Below, piece by piece: positions 9,746-62,504 of a stretch of 64,000 bases of DNA. The translations under genes and the position numbers were made by a program. Location: the sequence record NC_106721.1. One strand, 5' to 3'. A model generated the notes under the pieces. It was not told the origin of the DNA. It ran no database searches and worked only from the letters and a program-made list of their open reading frames with translations. Position 1 is the stretch's first letter. Each line of letters opens with the position of its first letter. The stretch is from Escherichia phage EC148.

Positions 9746-9937
9746 CTACAATTTTAAATAAGCCTATGATATTGCATTTAAATAAAAAATTTGCTTGCTT
9801 TTAACGTGAGATGTGTGATACTAGATAATCATTTTATATCGCGTGCACGAGTGCGTGATTATACAATTTTTAATAGAGATTGGCAAATAAAATTTTTTGA
9901 CTCAGATCATGTTACAGAACTTTATAGTAAAATATTG

Positions 9938-12549: not shown

Positions 12550-12739
12550 GGGTTTAAACTCCGCTTTGGAAAATGCATTAATGCAGCAGTGGGAAACTGG
12601 CTATAAGGATGGTGTTGAATCCTGCGCTACTATGCTAGAAGTTATTGCTAATACCTTAATGGAGAAAGGCAATAAAGAATTAGCTGAGCTATTAGACAGT
12701 ATTGGGCAAAACTTCAGAGAACAGGTGAAAAATGCGTAG
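12518..12739 (+). CDS. hypothetical protein (73 aa)
   Basis: ORF track; GGAGAAA RBS upstream. Confidence 0.45.
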   Translation: MAFSKPILPDKGLNSALENALMQQWETGYKDGVESCATMLEVIANTLMEKGNKELAELLDSIGQNFREQVKNA

Positions 12740-33172: not shown

Positions 33173-34991
33173 GACACTAAAATTTAGTAACGTTATGTCT
33201 TACGGTAAGGACATCGTAATTCATCTCGATAAGAATCCCGTTACTCAACTAATCGGGGGCAATGGGCTAGGGAAATCTACAATTGCTACTGTTATTGAAG
33301 AACTATTCTATAATAAGAACTCACGCGGTATTAAGAAAGATGCTCTGTTCTCTTGGTCTTCTCCGAAAAAAGAATACGATATGCACGCTTATTTCTCGAA
33401 AGATGAGGATGAGTATGAACTGCATAAAGTAGTTAAGTCAACTGCTAAAGTAACTCTTATTAAGAATGGGGAAGATATTAGTGGACACACGGCAACCCAA
33501 ACATACAAGATGATTGAAGAAATTATGGGTGGTGACTTCCAAACATTCACCAAACTGATTTATCAATCGGTGGGCTCCAATCTAGACTTTCTAAAAGCAA
33601 CGGATGCAACACGTAAGGCTTTTCTTGTTAACTTGTTCAATCAAGAACAGTATAAAGAAATGTCAGAAACTATTAAGGCTGACCGTAAAGAAATAGCAAA
33701 TACCTTAAACAATTTGCAAGGCCAAATGGCTGTAATTACGAAAATCCTTAATGGAAAGAATAATCTAGGAACTCTACAGGAACCTGTAGAAGTACCGGAG
33801 TTTGATGAAGAACCATTAGCACAAGAACTTACTGAATCGAAAATTAAGGCGGCATTAGCCAAGTCTCAAGAGGCTAATATTACTAAATTGCGTAATTTGG
33901 ACAAAGCTGTACAAGTTGCCGAACAATCTTTCGAACCTTTCAAAAATTTACCCGCGCCCACCGACCAAAACGAAGAGATCTCAAGTGTTACGCGTGACCT
34001 AACGATTGTGACCTCACGTGCGGGTGAAGTTAAGAAACGTTATCAGAAGTTCAAGCAAGAGGCTTCAAATACTGAATGTCCTACTTGTGGTACTCATCTG
34101 GATACAACTGCCGCTCAAAAAGCAATGGATATGGCTAGAACAGAATATGATCCTCTGTTCAAAGAGAAGCAATCTCTTGAAGCTAAGCTAGAACAGTTGA
34201 GGAAAGAACAACTTGAGTACGTTGCGTATATTAGAGCAAAGGATGCCTTGGATAAAGCAGTGGTAGCTAGGGACGAGTTCAAAAATTCAATGAGTGATGC
34301 TTCTTTTGAAGAACTCAATGTGCAAATCCTACAGGTGCAAATCCGACAATTAGAACAGGAAATCGCTGATGGACGTTCTAAGGTTGCAATTGCCAAAGAG
34401 CATAATGCAAATGTCGAATTAGCCAATGCAAAATATAAAGCGAAACTAGAACAGATTGAGAAAGCTGAAGCAGAAATGTCCGAGATTACTTCCAAATTAA
34501 ATGAAGTATCAGAAGCTGTTGCTGATCTCGATATTCTGATTGCTGCATTGAAGAATTTAGTAGGATATAAACTAGAGCATAGTGTGAAAGTATTTGAAGA
34601 ACTAATTAATAAATACCTTTCTATTATGACTGGCGGTAAATTCGCACTTGGATTTGAACTTGATGAAACAAAATTACAAGTAGTAATCTTCAATGATGGA
34701 AATCGTACCAGTATGGAGAACTGCTCTACTGGTCAACAGAGTCGAATTAACCTAGCAACCCTGTTAGCTATTCGGATGCTGTTAACATCTATTAGTAAAG
34801 TTAATATTAATCTTCTATTCCTTGATGAAGTAATTAGCTTTATTGATACGAAAGGACTTGACACTCTTGTTGAATTATTAAACGAGGAAGAAAGTCTAAA
34901 TTCTATCATTGTTTCTCATGGGCATACGCATCCACTAGCTCATAAGATTACTGTCAAAAAAGATGCAGAAGGATTTTCCTACTTAGAATAA
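33153..34991 (+). CDS. Rad50/SbcC-like ATPase
   Basis: Walker A GGNGLGKST, long coiled coil, signature-like CSTGQQS, Walker B LFLDEV. Start set at ATG 33153 (MSKITIK). Confidence 0.8.
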   Translation: MSKITIKTLKFSNVMSYGKDIVIHLDKNPVTQLIGGNGLGKSTIATVIEELFYNKNSRGIKKDALFSWSSPKKEYDMHAYFSKDEDEYELHKVVKSTAKVTLIKNGEDISGHTATQTYKMIEEIMGGDFQTFTKLIYQSVGSNLDFLKATDATRKAFLVNLFNQEQYKEMSETIKADRKEIANTLNNLQGQMAVITKILNGKNNLGTLQEPVEVPEFDEEPLAQELTESKIKAALAKSQEANITKLRNLDKAVQVAEQSFEPFKNLPAPTDQNEEISSVTRDLTIVTSRAGEVKKRYQKFKQEASNTECPTCGTHLDTTAAQKAMDMARTEYDPLFKEKQSLEAKLEQLRKEQLEYVAYIRAKDALDKAVVARDEFKNSMSDASFEELNVQILQVQIRQLEQEIADGRSKVAIAKEHNANVELANAKYKAKLEQIEKAEAEMSEITSKLNEVSEAVADLDILIAALKNLVGYKLEHSVKVFEELINKYLSIMTGGKFALGFELDETKLQVVIFNDGNRTSMENCSTGQQSRINLATLLAIRMLLTSISKVNINLLFLDEVISFIDTKGLDTLVELLNEEESLNSIIVSHGHTHPLAHKITVKKDAEGFSYLE

Positions 34992-35477: not shown

Positions 35478-36352
35478 TGAGTAAATCCTGGGGAAAATTT
35501 ATTGAAGAAGAGGAAGCTGAAATGGCTTCCCGTCGTAACCTAATGATTGTCGATGGAACTAACTTAGGCTTTCGCTTCAAACATAACAACAGTAAAAAAC
35601 CATTTGCCTCAAGTTATGTTTCCACTATTCAGTCTCTAGCAAAATCTTATTCTGCTAGAACTACAATAGTTTTAGGAGATAAGGGGAAGTCTGCATTCCG
35701 CTTAGAGCATTTACCTGAGTATAAGGGTAATCGAGATGAGAAATACTCTCAGCGTACGGAAGAGGAGAAAGCGTTAGATGAGCAGTTCTTCGAGTATTTG
35801 AAAGATGCTTTCGAGTTATGTGAAACTACATTCCCAACTTTCACTATTCGGGGTGTAGAAGCAGATGATATGGCAGCTTATATTGTTAAACTGATCGGGC
35901 ATCTATATGATCACGTTTGGCTGATTTCTACTGATGGTGACTGGGATACTTTATTAACTGATAAAGTATCTCGCTTCTCTTTCACAACACGTCGTGAATA
36001 CCATCTTCGTGATATGTATGAGCATCATAATGTTGACGATGTAGAGCAGTTTATCTCCCTGAAAGCAATTATGGGTGATTTAGGGGATAATATCCGAGGT
36101 GTTGAAGGTATTGGGGCAAAGCGCGGGTATAATATTATTCGTGAATTTGGTAACGTTCTGGATATTATTGATCAGCTTCCACTGCCTGGAAAACAGAAAT
36201 ATATACAGAATTTAAATGCTTCGGAAGAATTGCTTTATCGAAACCTAATTCTGGTTGATTTACCTACCTACTGTGTGGATGCTATTGCTGCTGTAGGTCA
36301 AGATGTATTAGATAAATTTACAAAAGATATTTTGGAGATTGCAGAACAATGA
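35477..36352 (+). CDS. flap endonuclease / 5'-3' exonuclease (T5 D15-like)
   Basis: 291 aa; N-terminal LMIVDGTNLGFR resembles the Pol I 5'-nuclease family; size matches T5 D15 as I recall it. Confidence 0.85.
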   Translation: MSKSWGKFIEEEEAEMASRRNLMIVDGTNLGFRFKHNNSKKPFASSYVSTIQSLAKSYSARTTIVLGDKGKSAFRLEHLPEYKGNRDEKYSQRTEEEKALDEQFFEYLKDAFELCETTFPTFTIRGVEADDMAAYIVKLIGHLYDHVWLISTDGDWDTLLTDKVSRFSFTTRREYHLRDMYEHHNVDDVEQFISLKAIMGDLGDNIRGVEGIGAKRGYNIIREFGNVLDIIDQLPLPGKQKYIQNLNASEELLYRNLILVDLPTYCVDAIAAVGQDVLDKFTKDILEIAEQ

Positions 36353-54659: not shown

Positions 54660-56036
54660 TTAAGATGCAGCGTAAGCACCAGATACAACGCCGTTATTAA
54701 AGTAACGTTGCAGGTTAACACGCTGAGTAACGTAGTACGCATCACGCTGTTTACCAGCTTGGCGCTCACGTTCAACAGTAACAGCACGCTGACGCGGCAT
54801 TACGAAGTTATCTTTATAAACAATAACTGCGAACTCTGCAGAGTTAGCTTTAGCCGGGAAGAACTCAGAAACTACAACCGGCAGACCGTAAATACGACCA
54901 ACCTGACCTTGCAGTTTAACAGCATCATTACCAACTTGGGCAACATCCTGCCATTCTTCATCTTCCAGCAGATCGTAATAAGCATCCATAGATACAATCA
55001 GTACCAGTTTGCTCAGTTTCAGACCATGACGGCCCAGTTTACGGCGCAGTTTAGAGATAGTTTTAGCAGTTACCAGAACAGAACCATCAGCTTTAGCTTC
55101 AGTAATAACTTTAGCACTATCGCCTTCAGCCAGTTTCAGCAGACCCTTAGGCTTACCAGTACCGTCACCAGTCATGAAAGCTTCTTCGATAGAAACAGCG
55201 TGTGCTTCAATCAGACGCTTACGCAGCAGCGGTAGCAGGGAGAAGATTGCATCTTCTTCAGTTTCATCAGTAATGAAGGACTTAGCAGCCAGTTTATAGG
55301 TTTTGAACTGAATTTCAGTCAGAGCACCTTTAACTTCGTCACCAGTAGTAGCATCAGTACCATATGCGCTAGCATCTACCCAAGTAGCTTTACCAGCATC
55401 TGGTTCAACCAGCATAGTAAGAATTTTGCTGGACATTGGCAGTTCTTCAAACAGAGCACCAACTACTAGTTCTTTCTGCAGGTCACGAATAATACGCTGG
55501 GAGAAAATAGTTTCGTAGCTTTCACTAGAAACTTCTACTGAAGAGGACTGGTTTACAGTTTTCAGGTGTCTCTGGCCATGTTCGGTATCAAATACACCTT
55601 TTTCCATCACGTAAGACAGAAGAACCAGTTTTTCAACTTCATCTTCAAAGTTTTCCTGAGTACCGTACAGTGCTTTAGCTACGCTATCACCAACGAAGGA
55701 ACGACCTTCACGAGCTGCTAGCAGAGATTTGATTTCGTCCTGAAGACCAACAATAGTTTCCTGCTGTTTTTCTACAGTCTGTGCAAACAGTTCTGCGCTC
55801 TTCTTAGATTTCTCATCCAGGGATTTAACCAGTTCCAGAGCTTCTTCTAGCTTCTGACGATCTTCGCCAACTGCTTTAGAAACCAGGTCATTCATACGAG
55901 CCAGTTCTTTTTCTTCCTGCTCTTTACGCATACGTTCAGCTTCAGCAGCTTTCTGAGCAGCGGTCAGACCTTCCAGAGATTTAGCCAGATCACCCAGACC
56001 AAGTTCTTCTTTCAGCTTATTAATATCAATAGTCAT
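54660..56036 (-). CDS. major capsid protein with N-terminal scaffolding domain (pb8-like, HK97 fold)
   Basis: 458 aa; coiled-coil N-terminal ~150 aa then capsid-like body; host-optimised codons; strong terminator downstream. Confidence 0.85.
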   Translation of the reverse strand: MTIDINKLKEELGLGDLAKSLEGLTAAQKAAEAERMRKEQEEKELARMNDLVSKAVGEDRQKLEEALELVKSLDEKSKKSAELFAQTVEKQQETIVGLQDEIKSLLAAREGRSFVGDSVAKALYGTQENFEDEVEKLVLLSYVMEKGVFDTEHGQRHLKTVNQSSSVEVSSESYETIFSQRIIRDLQKELVVGALFEELPMSSKILTMLVEPDAGKATWVDASAYGTDATTGDEVKGALTEIQFKTYKLAAKSFITDETEEDAIFSLLPLLRKRLIEAHAVSIEEAFMTGDGTGKPKGLLKLAEGDSAKVITEAKADGSVLVTAKTISKLRRKLGRHGLKLSKLVLIVSMDAYYDLLEDEEWQDVAQVGNDAVKLQGQVGRIYGLPVVVSEFFPAKANSAEFAVIVYKDNFVMPRQRAVTVERERQAGKQRDAYYVTQRVNLQRYFNNGVVSGAYAAS

Positions 56037-56053: not shown

Positions 56054-56686
56054 TTATTCTTTAACGTAGCCTAAAGCTATCGCAAGTTTTTCTAGTTCAG
56101 AAAGATTACGTTCTTGAGCTGGGACAGCTTTAGAACTTATTGCAGTAAAAGATTTACGCCATTCAGTATAATCATGACCATTCATACTCTTAGCGAGATT
56201 GAATGTTGAGTCCTGATTACAAGGTACAGAAACTACCGAAACTTCGTATAGTTCTAAATCTTTAATAATAAATATATCAGTAGCTTCATCCCACTCTGCA
56301 TCTAGGCAGCGGAATCCGATACTAAAAGTTTTCAGTACACCGTTTTTAATTAGCGAAAAGATAGCCGGGTCAGAACTTTCATAGATCTCACATTCGATTT
56401 CGAGACCCATTTCAGTAGGATTAAGATCAATACACTTGCCGATTGGACGACGATGGTCGTGTCCGAAAAGAATAATCGGGTTTTTCATGTAGTTAGCAAG
56501 TGCATTAGATGTTTTCCATGCAGAGGCAGGAATTACATCACCAGCGCGATCTTTACTAATTGTATTAGCGAATCCACGGATTTTTACAACACCCTCTTTG
56601 GATTCGCTATCAATAGATTTAATATAAGCATCTAAATGAACCGGTGCTGATTTTAACTTGTTATAGTCAATAGCAGCTTGTGTCAT
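56054..56686 (-). CDS. prohead maturation protease (HK97-family)
   Basis: 210 aa; FGHDH motif; located between the portal/decoration and capsid genes. Confidence 0.7.
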   Translation of the reverse strand: MTQAAIDYNKLKSAPVHLDAYIKSIDSESKEGVVKIRGFANTISKDRAGDVIPASAWKTSNALANYMKNPIILFGHDHRRPIGKCIDLNPTEMGLEIECEIYESSDPAIFSLIKNGVLKTFSIGFRCLDAEWDEATDIFIIKDLELYEVSVVSVPCNQDSTFNLAKSMNGHDYTEWRKSFTAISSKAVPAQERNLSELEKLAIALGYVKE

Positions 56687-56689
56687 TTA

Positions 56690-57172
56690 TTAGCCTCCAA
56701 CACCGGGATTAACCGTTACTGTGCATGCAGTAGAAGGTTTACTAACTTTCTTGCTATCTGTAACCGTTACTTTATAGACTCCCGAATCATCAGTAGCTGC
56801 TGCAGGCTTAGTATAGGTAGCTCCTGAAGCATCTGGAATAGGAGAACCATCTTTAGTCCATGCATAAGTATAAGGACCAGTTCCGCCGGTTGCAGTAACA
56901 GAAAGTGTTAATGCTGTACCTTCTGTAATAGACATACTAGCAGTTAAATCTTTAGAAAGAGTTAATGGTGGAGCAGGAGGAACTGCTTTACCATAAGCCT
57001 CTACAAATTTCTTCCATACTTTACGGTTAGTATGCGCAGATGAAAGTCCTAGTTCTCTACGCAGAAAAGCATAGCTAGGAACATATTTATGCGCAGCAAC
57101 CGTAGCAAAGAAGATATGAGATTCTGGTAGTTTTTCACCAAAAATGGTCTTTAGACCATTATAATCAATCAT
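56690..57172 (-). CDS. capsid decoration protein with Ig-like domain (pb10-like)
   Basis: 160 aa; C-terminal Ig-like segment ...TYAWTKDGSPIPDASGATYTKPAAATDDSGVYKVTVTD. Confidence 0.6.
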   Translation of the reverse strand: MIDYNGLKTIFGEKLPESHIFFATVAAHKYVPSYAFLRRELGLSSAHTNRKVWKKFVEAYGKAVPPAPPLTLSKDLTASMSITEGTALTLSVTATGGTGPYTYAWTKDGSPIPDASGATYTKPAAATDDSGVYKVTVTDSKKVSKPSTACTVTVNPGVGG

Positions 57173-58386
57173 TCTTTATCTCCCTCGGTGGAACCTTGAG
57201 GTCTGCCACCTTCTTGACCAGATACACCTGTTGCAGAACCAGCAACGTTAGCAGGAATACGAATCTTATCCATCTGCTCATCATCTAAAGGTTCAAGGTT
57301 CAGCTCTAAACGAGCTTCGTTACCAGTCATAATACCATTATTAACCAATGAGGTTAAATGTTTAGCCTCAGCTTCTTTATCTGGTGTTAATGCAGCTACT
57401 TCCTTAGTATTAGGAGTAATCTTATAACCAAAAAAGAAAGTAAGAGAACTAGTCAGTTTGTTCAGCATAGGAATGATAGTCATATAATAGAACAGTTCGA
57501 TATTTGGTCGAATGTTCGCATTATTACCACCATCAAGCAGTACTTGCGGAACACCAAAGGCTAGACAGATAGATTTATTAAATCCTTCAATGTCTTCCTT
57601 GAAGTCTAGGTCTTTAAAAGAGGATATTTGGGAGTACGGTTTAGCTTTCATACCACCATCTAGAATCAGGACAGAGGACTGACCAGTACTAGGATTATAA
57701 TCTAGTTGTAATTCTTCTTGTTTACGCTCACGCAATTTCTTGTTCAGGATTTCATCCGTCTCAAGAATAAGACCAATCACAGTTCCATTATCGAGGAATT
57801 TCTCTTTAAAGTTAAGCATCTTAGAACGCTTCTCAAGAGAGTCAATAACAGTAGCAACACGAGATTGTCCAGAAATTTGAGAATTTGTGCCACACACGTA
57901 ACTGTTATCCTTTATAAAGATAATCTCATCTACGCGATAGTCTATCTGGTTATTAAATATAAATTTTTTGATAAACTTATTGGCATCTGCCTCTACTTGC
58001 ATTAATGCAGCAGGGACATGGTAAAGTGCTGTGCCATCCCAATAGATGTATGCACAACCTTCAAAAAGTAGGTCAGTGACTACAAGTCTACGGAATGTGC
58101 TTATATCCATGAATGGATTAGGTCGTACATTTAAGAGAGTGTCTAGAGTCTTTGCCTTGATGCCATTGGCATACGTGACAATATTATATTTATCTCCGAC
58201 AGTATAAGAACACTCCGCCGCACTATCTATAACCATATTAGCAGTTCTATTGAGAATCTCAATTTTACTGTAGGCTTGTCCAGTGGTAAAAGGCTTACGG
58301 TTAGTGCGATGACTAACTGGTTCCATGTCTCTTATAATACGTTGACCCGGATTTAGCTTTTCAGTAATCCAGCTTTTAAAACCCAT
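57169..58386 (-). CDS. portal protein
   Basis: 405 aa; position between terminase/HNH and the head genes. Confidence 0.7.
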   Translation of the reverse strand: MGFKSWITEKLNPGQRIIRDMEPVSHRTNRKPFTTGQAYSKIEILNRTANMVIDSAAECSYTVGDKYNIVTYANGIKAKTLDTLLNVRPNPFMDISTFRRLVVTDLLFEGCAYIYWDGTALYHVPAALMQVEADANKFIKKFIFNNQIDYRVDEIIFIKDNSYVCGTNSQISGQSRVATVIDSLEKRSKMLNFKEKFLDNGTVIGLILETDEILNKKLRERKQEELQLDYNPSTGQSSVLILDGGMKAKPYSQISSFKDLDFKEDIEGFNKSICLAFGVPQVLLDGGNNANIRPNIELFYYMTIIPMLNKLTSSLTFFFGYKITPNTKEVAALTPDKEAEAKHLTSLVNNGIMTGNEARLELNLEPLDDEQMDKIRIPANVAGSATGVSGQEGGRPQGSTEGDKE

Positions 58387-58823
58387 TATAAGAACCTTGC
58401 GAATCCTGATTTTGTTTCAGTCTTGACTTGTGTCTTTTCTTGAGGATTCTGTAATTTGTCTTTCTGCTTTTGAACCCACACTTTTTGCTTATTAGCAGAA
58501 AATAAAGGAGGTTCTTTTGTGTAAACCTTATGTAATAATTGGTGATGGTGTACACAAAGGGTAACAGTGTCTTCTACTAGCTCATGCCTATATCGATCAT
58601 AGAATGCCGTCCTATTTGAAAGGACTATTTCTTCGTCAGTGAAATCCAATTGGAGTTCTTTAGCAAATTTTTTAACTAGTAGAGACACCGTATGGTAATG
58701 ATGAAGCTCTAATTCTTCAGCACAACCGCAGATAGCACATTGAGAGTCTTTTTTATATTGACTTTTTATTCCGTCTCTCATAAGGGATATAGCATCGCGT
58801 TTATATTTTATATTGCTTGCCAT
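58386..58823 (-). CDS. HNH endonuclease
   Basis: CAICGCAEELELHHYH ... CVHHHQLLHK (HNH/Zn motif). Start set at ATG 58823..58821 (GAGGAG RBS) instead of the ORF-track start at 58910. Confidence 0.7.
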   Translation of the reverse strand: MASNIKYKRDAISLMRDGIKSQYKKDSQCAICGCAEELELHHYHTVSLLVKKFAKELQLDFTDEEIVLSNRTAFYDRYRHELVEDTVTLCVHHHQLLHKVYTKEPPLFSANKQKVWVQKQKDKLQNPQEKTQVKTETKSGFARFL

Positions 58824-58937
58824 AGTGTTCTCCTCAACTGTATGAATATAGTATACATAATCGTATCGAATTTGTAAAGGGGATTTTAAAATGCAGGAAT
58901 GGGATACCAACTGAGTAGTATCCCTTCCTATACTTAT

Positions 58938-60254
58938 TTATTTACCACGGGAAATAGAGTAAATTCCATAGCGCAGAGCATCACAGAGGTGAGAGTTAGC
59001 ATCATGACGTGGTTTTTCACGTGATAATTTTTCTTCACCTTCTTGGAAATCCCACTTGTAATTCTGCAATGCGTGAATTAATGAGGAACATGAAGCATCC
59101 ACAATAATCTTGCCTTGTTGGAATAGTGCTTGTAAACATGCTAATCCATCTAGGACAGATTTTTTAGCTGGAGCCGATGCAATTTCATGTTCATAAGCTA
59201 AGTCCTGACGGAACTGAGCTGCGGCAGAGTCAACAAAAACACGATCAACTTTATAACGATCTATACAGTGCTGAATGTAAGCCGCATGCTGAGCTGTGGT
59301 TTTCTCCGCCTGCTGGTACTCTTCTAATACATAGTAGGTATCTGTATCATAGTGGTACTTAATAGTAAGAACTGCTGTAGGATCACGATAACCAACGTCA
59401 ATACCAAGCAACGTTTCGAATGCTTCATCATCTTTAAAGAAGTGACGCATACCTTTAAGGTCTTTAACATGGTCTATAGCATTAAAGGTATCAAAGATCT
59501 GACCTTCGAATACAGAGAAGTCAGCCTCATATTCCTGACGAAAGTAGTTTTTACTAACTGTACGACGTGCTTCTTCGATATCATTCAGATCAGCACGTGG
59601 GTTATCACGATACGTACCATGAATAGATACCCAGTTAGGTAATGTATCATCAAATCCATAGGCATAAAACTCTTTAAACCAGTTACCACCACGAGGAGTA
59701 GAGATAAATAGAGCCTTAGAGTTTGGTTTATCTAGGGTAGGACGCAACTGAACTCTAAAGGCATCACCACCCACATCGGAAATTGCCGCCTCATCAAAGA
59801 TGATAAAGTCATATGAACGCCCAACTGCGGAGTCAGCCTGCGCCGCAGAAGCTAGTTTAAACAGAGAACCATTAGCTAACTCAATCTCTTTATCTTTAGC
59901 ATTCTCACGTTCGGTTTGTAGGCCATATTTTTTAATAAGACCACGAATCTGAGACCATCCGATGTTGGCCAGTGAGTAGTTAGGAGCAACTACTAGCACC
60001 TTTACGTTAGGCTCCAGCAACTTTAGAAACCCAAGTGTGTATGCGATGAAGGATTTACCTACACGGCGTGATACACACGCCGTTACAAAACGATGTCTAG
60101 GGTCTTCTAGCGCATTGATAATCGCTATTTGAGGACCATTAGGTGTAATACCCTCTTGAGCTAGTATTCCTGAAACAGGTAGACGAAAGAAACGTTTGTC
60201 TATTCCGAAATCAATAACATCAACTGTGTTAACGTAGGGTCTTGATACTTCCAT
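58938..60254 (-). CDS. terminase large subunit
   Basis: 438 aa; P-loop VSRRVGKSF; C-terminal nuclease-like half. Confidence 0.85.
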   Translation of the reverse strand: MEVSRPYVNTVDVIDFGIDKRFFRLPVSGILAQEGITPNGPQIAIINALEDPRHRFVTACVSRRVGKSFIAYTLGFLKLLEPNVKVLVVAPNYSLANIGWSQIRGLIKKYGLQTERENAKDKEIELANGSLFKLASAAQADSAVGRSYDFIIFDEAAISDVGGDAFRVQLRPTLDKPNSKALFISTPRGGNWFKEFYAYGFDDTLPNWVSIHGTYRDNPRADLNDIEEARRTVSKNYFRQEYEADFSVFEGQIFDTFNAIDHVKDLKGMRHFFKDDEAFETLLGIDVGYRDPTAVLTIKYHYDTDTYYVLEEYQQAEKTTAQHAAYIQHCIDRYKVDRVFVDSAAAQFRQDLAYEHEIASAPAKKSVLDGLACLQALFQQGKIIVDASCSSLIHALQNYKWDFQEGEEKLSREKPRHDANSHLCDALRYGIYSISRGK

Positions 60255-60736
60255 TACTTCTTACCTCCAGTAGCTAGGGAAGTAATTAAGTCCATGTAGT
60301 TTTGATCCCCAGCTCCAGCAATAATATTATTCTGGATATTGGTCTGATTAGCAGGAGCACGGACGGCAGCTTTAGCTTTTTCTAGCTCCACCATCATTTT
60401 CATCTCTTCCATCTTCATTTTATGTGCCTTCCAGAGAATATCCATAATATCCTGGTCAGAACCCATGCCAGTTTCTTCCAGTTCCTCCAGCTTACGTTTA
60501 ATAACTTCATCTAGAACACCGAACAAACGATCTCTGTTACGGAATCCACTCTCCATAAAAATATCGTTCAAGTAATTCTTAACTTCACTACGATTCATAA
60601 TATCTCGGAAAGCAATTTCAGACATTCCAAGACTACGTGCGGCAGAAGGCACATCGCTACCGCACTGTAAATAAGCTTCAATCACATCCATCCCTTCAGG
60701 GGACATAAGATCTGGTACTAATACATCATTTGCCAT
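60254..60736 (-). CDS. terminase small subunit (putative)
   Basis: 160 aa; N-terminal HTH-like segment; immediately upstream of the large subunit with ATGA overlap. Confidence 0.55.
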
Positions 60737-60746
60737 ATTTCCTCCT

Positions 60747-62504
60747 TTAGGTAAGGCGTTGAACTGTTACTCTTAATCTAGGTAGAAAAACTGCACTACC
60801 TAAACTTACGTGCATAACTACCCCTAACTCTACATTTCCATTCCCCAGATTTTTAGCAGTATATATAAAACTATTTCTACTTAGGGCATTGTTAGGTGTG
60901 TATCTAAAAGCAGATGTAGTATGAAAAGGTACTAAATACCCTACTGGTAATGTTAAAATCTGGTGGAATATCGCGTCACCATTACTATAACTATATGCTC
61001 TTCTTCCTTGCACCTGAAACACACCGTTATTCCATGTATTAGCAGGGACACCTGCACAGTTAAGATTACCTGATATAACTTCAGTGGTAAGAATTACTGT
61101 AGCATTGCCACCCGGTATACCTAGCCCAATAGTTGATAAACCAACGTATCTATCTCCTGTTCCTGGGTAGCTGGGGGTAATATCATCTCCCATATAAGAA
61201 CTACCTACATTTCCACCAAAAAGTCGTAATGGAACTGCTGATGGTCCCCAAACAACCCCGTGTTCATTACCGATAGTATTATCATTAGAGTTTACGTACC
61301 ATTGCTTACCAGCTCCGAATTTGTAAATACTAATTTGAGACTTAGCCCCTCCATAGTCCACAGGAGACCATAAACTCCCGTTACTAGAACCTACAAGTTC
61401 ACACCTTGCGGTGGTATCCCCAAAGGCCCCAGTATATGCTGCATTATTTCCAATATATTCCATATCTGGTCTATAACCTAAGTTACCGAAAGCGTTCTGG
61501 TTAATAAACTTGTATCCAGTATTGGGAAGACTAACCCCTTTAATTATGAAATTAGAAGGAGATATAAGAATATCTGAACCAGTAAAAGGATTACCAGAGA
61601 TACTCATACCACCATTTGAGTATCTTAAATTCAAAACGTACCAAATAACTTTAGTAGGAGTTATGTTATACCAATCTTGTAGTATTGTAGAATCACCAGA
61701 TTGATTAGCTAAATTAGTTGTAGAACCCCTACAAACAAACCTATTACCCCCATCATGATACATAGTATTTACATTACCAGGAAGACCTTGTCTTACCCCA
61801 CCATACCCACGTATGTTAGAGTTACAAACATAGAACCAATCGTGCCCTCTGTGTGCTGATCCTAAAGGAGACATCCATCCTGGGTCCCAGTAATTTTGGT
61901 TATTCCCATCTATAGGTACTGTACTACTATTAGTAGGGAATCCTAACTGTGCAAAAGCTTCTGCAACAGTAACCCCTACTGGAGCTCCTGCACCTGGCCT
62001 AACTATACCATGATACGTACTATGTAGGGTAGTTCCACCAGTACCATTCCTAGAAATAGATTCTTCATGCCCTATAGATGGATTATAGTTATATGTACCA
62101 GATGCCAGGCTATTACCAAATGCAAATCCACTAGTCTGGGAAACACTAGCAAAAGATCTAAAAGGATCTGCTTGAGTGGCAACTATAGTTTGACCCACCT
62201 TACTCTGAGTACCATTAAGAAAAGCTCTGTGAGTACCATTAATCTCAATAGCAGTTAATATAACTCTACCAGGATCGTTAGATTTAATATTTATTATGTC
62301 AGAGGGCATCTGACATACAAAAAACCCATTTCCGGCATTTCCTAACCCAGCCTCATAAGTACCATCAACTAGGACAAATGGCATATCACTATGAAAAATA
62401 CTATTGGCATTTGGACTATAGTGACGATTAATGTCACCACCAGATTCAGTATTTAAAGATAGTACGGTCTTACCATCGCTATATTTTCCAGCGAAAAAAC
62501 CCAT
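60747..62504 (-). CDS. receptor-binding tail protein (pb5/Oad functional analog)
   Basis: 585 aa; Gly/Asn/Ser/Tyr-rich; divergent from an llp-like lipoprotein gene as in the T5 oad-llp arrangement. Confidence 0.6.

Follow-up and report, generated by a model that had tools for sequence, protein, structure and literature searches.

The gene between the large terminase and the portal

Escherichia phage EC148 (sequence record NC_106721.1), a Tequintavirus, carries a small gene between its large terminase and portal genes, and the question raised by this locus is what a compact nuclease-like protein does there. We analysed a stretch of 64,000 nucleotides (nt) of the phage DNA, hereafter the window. 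A sequence-only reading of the window had noticed a compact protein with an HNH-type motif at this place and had proposed three roles for it: an accessory of DNA packaging, the enzyme that nicks the DNA of T5-type phages, or a homing endonuclease. Our comparison indicates that the open reading frame (ORF) at 58386-58823 very probably encodes the EC148 form of SciA, the site- and strand-specific nicking endonuclease of the T5 family. The motif (CxxC...HH...C..HHH) and the position of the gene are confirmed; the range 58386-60254 that had been assigned to it takes in two genes, the sciA ORF and the large terminase gene, terL. The relevant features are as follows.

58938-60254, minus strand: large terminase (TerL), with its own RNase H-like nuclease domain (Pfam Terminase_6N, 7.7e-15; Terminase_6C, 4.2e-11)
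58830-58835, minus strand: Shine-Dalgarno sequence GAGGAG, 6 nt before the sciA ATG (direct sequence reading)
58386-58823, minus strand: sciA, probable nicking endonuclease of 145 amino acids, a putative divergent HNH/beta-beta-alpha-metal nuclease
57169-58386, minus strand: portal (Pfam Phage_portal, 1.8e-50), its ATG overlapping the sciA stop (TAATG)

Identification of SciA

Residues 1-145 of the EC148 protein match the PDB chains 9QGV_A and 9QGX_A, both named 'Nicking endonuclease', with an E-value of 1e-80. The two entries, released on 2026-03-25, are entitled 'SciA(H42Q)' and 'SciA(H42A) endonuclease from Escherichia phage T5' and hold complexes with 10 bp DNA (GCGC sequence 2 and 1, respectively). 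This GCGC is the core of the T5 nick consensus. The predicted fold of EC148 SciA is the same as that of T5 SciA, with a template modelling (TM) score of 0.97, and agrees with the solved T5 structure. The T5 protein, T5.153/T5p149, is 145 amino acids long, collinear with the EC148 protein at 84% identity, alike in predicted fold and likewise encoded between terL and the portal gene. Its UniRef representative is the Swiss-Prot entry ENDON_BPT5, 'Nicking endonuclease', and in the GenBank record of phage DT57C the gene is called sciA and described as 'nicking site-specific endonuclease (T5p149, ORF142)'. The Pfam family PF26848 is precomputed on all 114 homologous protein clusters, including the one whose representative is identical to EC148 SciA. 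The kinship, the invariant residues, the fold match, the status as a core gene and the conservation of one nick site were established here; that T5 SciA is a nickase and binds GCGC DNA is taken from databases and the literature. Among the proposed roles it is thus that of the nicking enzyme which the orthology to T5 SciA bears out.

The sequence-only reading had also implied that the function was new, which does not hold: SciA has already been annotated and structurally characterised. A protein identical to that of EC148 is public under the names 'Nicking endonuclease' and 'putative nicking site-specific endonuclease [Salmonella phage oldekolle]'. The function of sciA is therefore already recorded in public databases, and the EC148 copy does not depart from its family. 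With the protein named in Swiss-Prot and GenBank, solved in PDB and public in identical form, its identification in EC148 as such matters little.

The longest reading of the sciA ORF starts with a TTG at 58910 and would yield 174 amino acids. This start was dropped in favour of an ATG with a strong ribosome-binding site. Translation almost certainly begins with the ATG at 58823, giving 145 amino acids, because GAGGAG precedes it, the 145-residue form is the one in Swiss-Prot and PDB, and the stop of the frame overlaps the portal ATG. By this overlap, TAATG, sciA is translationally coupled to the portal gene.

Conserved residues and predicted fold

The SciA motif consists of C29-A-I-C32, H41-H42, C90, H92-H93-H94 and H98. 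In our alignments of 27-34 homologues, down to 41% identity, C29, C32, H41, H42, C90, H94 and H98 are invariant. The complete set of invariant residues comprises R16, D17, K20, Y23, C29, C32, H41, H42, Y43, R71, L89, C90, H94, L97, H98, Y101, P105, Q113, W116 and V117, and EC148 SciA keeps every one of them. The ORF is not a chance one, since homologues occur in 898 phage records (see below).

Assignment to the HNH group requires some care. EC148 SciA gave no Pfam or NCBIfam match even at an E-value of 10 (PF26848 was not among the models scored), and the few homologues that match PF01844, PF13391, PF21368 or PF16784 all do so below threshold. The PHROG HNH family phrog_8048 matches EC148 SciA with an E-value of 5.7e-6 and 32 of the 34 homologues. 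The label 'HNH' therefore stems from the motif, phrog_8048 and the modelled beta-beta-alpha topology, and not from a significant Pfam or NCBIfam HNH model. In the model, a strand at residues 38-42 ends in H41-H42, three to four helices follow at 46-84, and a second strand at 86-90, which includes C90, leads into a helix at 91-101 that bears H94 and H98. SciA is thus modelled as a beta-beta-alpha core with a helical insert of about 40 residues. For single residues we infer the following roles. The invariant C29-x2-C32, C90 and H94 form a putative metal site of the zinc type and would hold a structural zinc. H42, the residue mutated in the T5 crystal DNA complexes to trap them, would be the general base, and H98 would help to bind the catalytic metal.

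Genes for small HNH proteins with zinc also lie next to terminase and portal genes in the HK97 gp74 and phage gamma types (PMC3592412), and many of these proteins are sequence-specific nicking enzymes. They come from cos-type phages and match canonical HNH models with a [CxxC]2 zinc site. SciA differs from both types in falling below the Pfam HNH thresholds, in the insert of about 40 residues within the beta-hairpin, and in its CxxC...C...H site. A canonical HNH domain with [CxxC]2 in a cos-type phage is not what we found: the second half-site is C...H, and the relatives are T5-like. Unlike the cos-type phages, those with SciA have long direct terminal repeats, and SciA is dispensable in at least one lineage, represented by phage My1.

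Distribution of sciA

Our tblastn search found sciA in 898 phage records, compared to 906 with a T5-type TerL; a query of 41% identity returned the same number. The gene is located between terL and the portal gene in every locus examined, and all 28 loci from IMG/VR carry it. The order TerS-TerL-SciA-portal is kept in the Vibrio phages Ceto and D386, which belong to another subfamily. Presence at the same position in related genomes had been proposed as a check on the gene, and its outcome is that of a near-universal core gene. Neither the 114 protein clusters nor the 898 phage records included a SciA homologue from outside the T5-like phages.

Of the eight TerL-positive records in which SciA found no match, four are Salmonella-phage records and, as deduced from organism tallies, four are Pectobacterium-phage records. 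When the draft sequence of Salmonella phage Stp1 (KY775453, 33878-40191) is compared with the window, blocks of 36, 59 and 55 nt are missing from its sciA and portal genes. Natural loss of sciA in Stp1 was considered and set aside, since the gaps also hit the essential portal gene; they are probably an assembly artefact. Such assembly errors may account for all four Salmonella-phage records, of which Stp1 is the one examined.

The situation in Pectobacterium phage My1 (Demerecviridae, Mccorquodalevirinae) is different. This phage has terminal repeats of 12.85 kb and NAD-ligase genes, and its TerL is followed by a non-coding gap of 287 nt (NC_018837, 105823-106109) and then by the portal gene. 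When the six-frame translation of the 122-kb My1 genome was searched with a profile, no SciA emerged: the best E-value was 0.95, compared to 3e-68 obtained with the control from the window. The nick-site motif in the D13 gene, described below, is absent from My1 as well. Myunavirus is the only lineage found to be truly without sciA. A natural lineage devoid of the gene that still has T5-type terminal repeats offers a lead to why T5-like phages nick their DNA.

Nick sites

According to the annotation of AY543070, the minus strand of T5 carries its major single-chain interruptions at 9748/9, 22336/7, 39746/7 and 78573/4. All four read R|GCGCRGG, in agreement with the consensus quoted in PMC3517423. 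SciA would recognise GCGC-containing sites of this kind and cut one strand, the minus strand of the window, 5' of GCGC (R|GCGCRGG), leaving fixed single-strand interruptions in the virion DNA. The window has the same orientation as AY543070, and the following matches were found in it.

33951-33958, minus strand: G|GCGCGGG within the D13 gene, a site predicted to be nicked by SciA, homologue of the T5 major site 78573/78574 in a near-identical context
12621-12628, minus (nicked) strand: RGCGCRGG match
59837-59844, minus (nicked) strand: RGCGCRGG match inside terL, kept in 5 of 22 scorable relatives
36120-36127, plus strand: RGCGCRGG match

The D13 site is the one for which we found conservation. 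Its 8-mer reads RGCGCRGG in 29 of 29 sequences (28 of them distinct), and all substitutions inside the 8-mer keep the consensus; in the D13 segment of the same sequences, a third of all third-codon positions vary. As an alignment result, this is supportive of a nick site but statistically modest. EC148 and T5 (position 107524) share the match inside terL, which T5_ev212, DT57C and the majority of relatives lack. Kept in so few of them, it was dropped as a candidate conserved site and is probably incidental or a strain-specific minor site.

The number of matches by itself is not informative. RGCGCRGG occurs four times in the window against 1.7 expected, with 13 of 100 shuffles reaching four, and the strands share the matches 3 to 1; neither figure is significant. 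The tetramer GCGC was counted 45 times, against 83 +/- 8.7 in dinucleotide shuffles. Relative to the trinucleotide expectation, the ratio of observed to expected is 0.76 with z of -1.8, as for CATG and GATC. The count accordingly gives no ground for assuming avoidance of GCGC sites, the apparent depletion vanishing under the trinucleotide model.

Strand-specific nicks of virion DNA at a short consensus, introduced late in the infection and of unexplained benefit, are also described for phiKMV-like and LUZ24-like (tf) Pseudomonas phages (PMC3517423). The consensus in these phages differs from that of T5, e.g., TACT/RTGMC in tf (PMC3517423).

Alternative functions of SciA

Several points weigh against SciA as the strand-specific nickase of EC148. 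Our literature search revealed neither primary biochemical or genetic proof that T5.153 is SciA nor a paper describing 9QGV and 9QGX, and the functional assignment of SciA rests on database names and PDB titles. The nicks themselves are known from T5; in EC148, nicking is a prediction from sequence. In the window, one copy of the 8-mer consensus lies on the opposite strand (36120-36127), and five such sites are present on the un-nicked strand of T5 (PMC3517423). With the consensus on both strands, sequence alone leaves the strand specificity unexplained. One could suppose that the protein is a nuclease with some other target, such as host or competitor DNA or intermediates of repair and recombination, and owes its name to its position only; the original T5 reference records indeed still label T5.153 'hypothetical protein', and the search found no primary evidence behind the name. 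We regard this as very improbable. The PDB depositors call the protein SciA and solved it in complex with GCGC duplexes corresponding to the nick consensus, a place in the late head and packaging operon fits nicking of progeny DNA rather than attack on the host, and sciA and the D13 site are both missing from My1.

A role in packaging is a further alternative. In the sense of HK97 gp74, the main job of the protein would be to assist the terminase in end cleavage or in the making of the long terminal repeats, and the nicks would be a by-product. The constant position between terL and the portal gene in the examined loci and the translational coupling to the portal are in line with such a role, and HNH genes beside terminase genes are a known theme (PMC3592412). 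SciA also has a conserved C-terminal motif, on a disordered tail, that could serve for docking. The gene that adjoins terL on the other side suggests that terminase and nicking are genetically linked:

60254-60736, minus strand: small terminase subunit (TerS), 160 amino acids, 'sciB' (PHROG 3802 terminase small subunit, 1.2e-90)

The T5 records AY692264 and AY587007 call this gene 'sciB', 'involved in formation of single-chain interruptions', and a note in the DT57C record bears on it as well; two sci genes thus flank terL. Both sciA and sciB map to the late region of T5, and nick-less mutants of T5 are reported to be viable (PMC3517423). That viability speaks against packaging as the main job, as do the 12.85-kb terminal repeats of My1, whose genome encodes no SciA homologue, the presence of a nuclease domain in TerL itself, and the DNA in the crystals, which is the GCGC core of the nick site and not a terminus. 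We therefore consider an accessory of this kind improbable. Of the original suggestion, an essential role in packaging finds no support; a looser, non-essential coupling of SciA to packaging is possible.

That SciA is a free-standing homing endonuclease, i.e., a selfish mobile gene inserted between terL and the portal gene, was the third proposal. HNH-type motifs are common in homing endonucleases, several of which are found in T5, and the terL-portal locus is a hot spot for a mobile endonuclease gene. Nevertheless, we hold this explanation to be extremely unlikely and the proposal to be mistaken. The gene is part of the core (898 of 906 TerL-positive records), its position and orientation are constant in the examined loci even between distant subfamilies, and no polymorphism of presence and absence of sciA was seen among the close relatives examined. 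The polymorphic insertion at this locus is a different gene, of the T5.154 type with a T5orf172 domain.

Possible packaging-coupled nicking and the C-terminal tail

For SciA as a nicking endonuclease, the timing of the nicks relative to packaging can be approached from the gene context and the C-terminal tail. The tail is predicted with low confidence, with a predicted local distance difference test (pLDDT) score below 50 at residues 132-140, and the T5 SciA structures model only about 120 of 148 residues. Near the C-terminus (residues ~122-145, window 58386-58460), a motif of the type [GS]-F-x-[RK]-F-L follows a variable linker. The motif occurs in 69 of 114 homologues, compared to 2.5% of shuffled tails; some homologues, such as P0010 and P0016, have it twice. 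This motif may be a protein-docking peptide.

The sciA gene would be expressed within the late packaging and head operon. From the gene order, the coupling to the portal, the sciB annotation and the tail motif, all of them hints, we infer a tentative scheme, which we think possible though rather doubtful: instead of acting freely as a site-specific nickase, SciA would be recruited to the packaging machinery via its tail motif, TerS (sciB) would tune its activity, and the nicks would be made while the DNA is threaded into the head. If true, nicking during packaging would explain why one strand is cut despite the presence of the consensus on the other. Why T5-like phages nick their DNA and how the strand is chosen are open questions of the field, and for these the tail motif is a lead, not a result.

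A mobile endonuclease gene and two sciA alleles

In T5, T5_ev212 and other phages, an additional gene, T5.154, is located between terL and sciA. Its product of 224-277 amino acids contains T5orf172/MUG113 and CapR domains and a zinc treble clef. Like SciA, it belongs to a nuclease family and is encoded at the terL-portal locus; unlike SciA, it is of an unrelated fold family and sporadic, the terL-sciA spacer being 517-835 nt compared to 114 nt in its absence. No T5.154-like gene is present in the window, and the same absence has been noted for phage Key (PMC10194208). Two features of the window are related to this insertion.

58831-58842, minus strand: empty insertion point for a T5.154-like gene; near 58842 the homology to T5, ev212 and DT57C is interrupted
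58520-58823, minus strand: 5' two-thirds of sciA, 'empty-site' allele (sliding identity)

Up to 58842, where the insertion follows, the window is about 100% identical to T5, T5_ev212 and DT57C. In the first ~300 nt of sciA the identity is only 67-83%, and at 58519 it jumps back to 98-100%, a level that extends through the portal gene. This divergent 5' allele is the reason why SciA is only 84% identical to the T5 protein, compared to 99.8% for TerL and 98% for the portal protein. The 23 amino acid differences between the SciA proteins of T5 and EC148, almost all within residues 1-100, arise since EC148 has the 'empty-site' 5' allele and T5 the allele linked to T5.154.

The same two alleles were recognised in 27 IMG/VR loci. 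A spacer of 114-115 nt is always accompanied by the 5' allele of the window (17 loci) and a spacer of 517-835 nt always by the T5-type allele (10 loci). The association is perfect, in 27 of 27 loci (p about 1e-7). The linked allele, i.e., the first ~300 nt of sciA, is about 26% divergent and sharply bounded, and the 3' third of sciA assorts independently of the spacer type. From the alignments, this pattern looks like that of a homing-endonuclease cassette: a free-standing gene moving together with, or shielding, a divergent flank, which would be co-converted or immunising. At this locus it is the T5.154-type gene, not SciA, that behaves like a homing endonuclease. That the catalytic part of sciA occurs as two alleles with sharp boundaries, tied to the adjoining mobile gene, is again a lead and not a result.

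In DT57C, an unannotated gap of 518 nt separates terL from sciA (locus L008, 2483-3000), at the place of T5.154 in T5, and goes together with the sciA allele of the T5 type. The same spacer, of 517-518 nt, occurs at the IMG/VR loci L037 and L040. The DT57C gap may be the remnant of a decayed endonuclease gene.

The terL-sciA spacer

The spacer between terL and sciA is itself conserved. It contains two elements.

58889-58935, minus strand: conserved hairpin with a 15-bp stem directly behind the stop codon of terL, with a U-rich stretch after it
58850-58878, minus strand: promoter-like TTTACA-17 nt-TATACT upstream of sciA, matching 10 of 12 consensus positions

The 117-nt stretch 58824-58940, which includes the hairpin, folds with -25.4 kcal/mol (z of -2.3). 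The first 96 nt of the spacer (58842-58937) have a mean identity of 96% among 28 loci, with or without the insertion, and often reach 100%; this part is more conserved than the flanking coding DNA. The promoter-like element (TTTACAAATTCG...ATTATGTATACTATA) is also present in the gap between TerL and the portal gene of My1, which is devoid of sciA. The window has a private substitution at spacer position 13, counted from the base after the TerL stop, which is not found in 27 of 28 relatives.

Genomic context

The terL-portal region of EC148 belongs to a T5-type late region that occupies 54-62 kb of the window on the minus strand. The remaining genes of this region are listed below.

54660-56036, minus strand: major capsid protein
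56054-56686, minus strand: prohead protease
56690-57172, minus strand: decoration protein pb10
60747-62504, minus strand: receptor-binding protein pb5

A 4-kb stretch shares 99.6% identity with Escherichia phage vB_EcoS_MM-1, and 470 records of the Tequintavirus/Epseptimavirus type match it.

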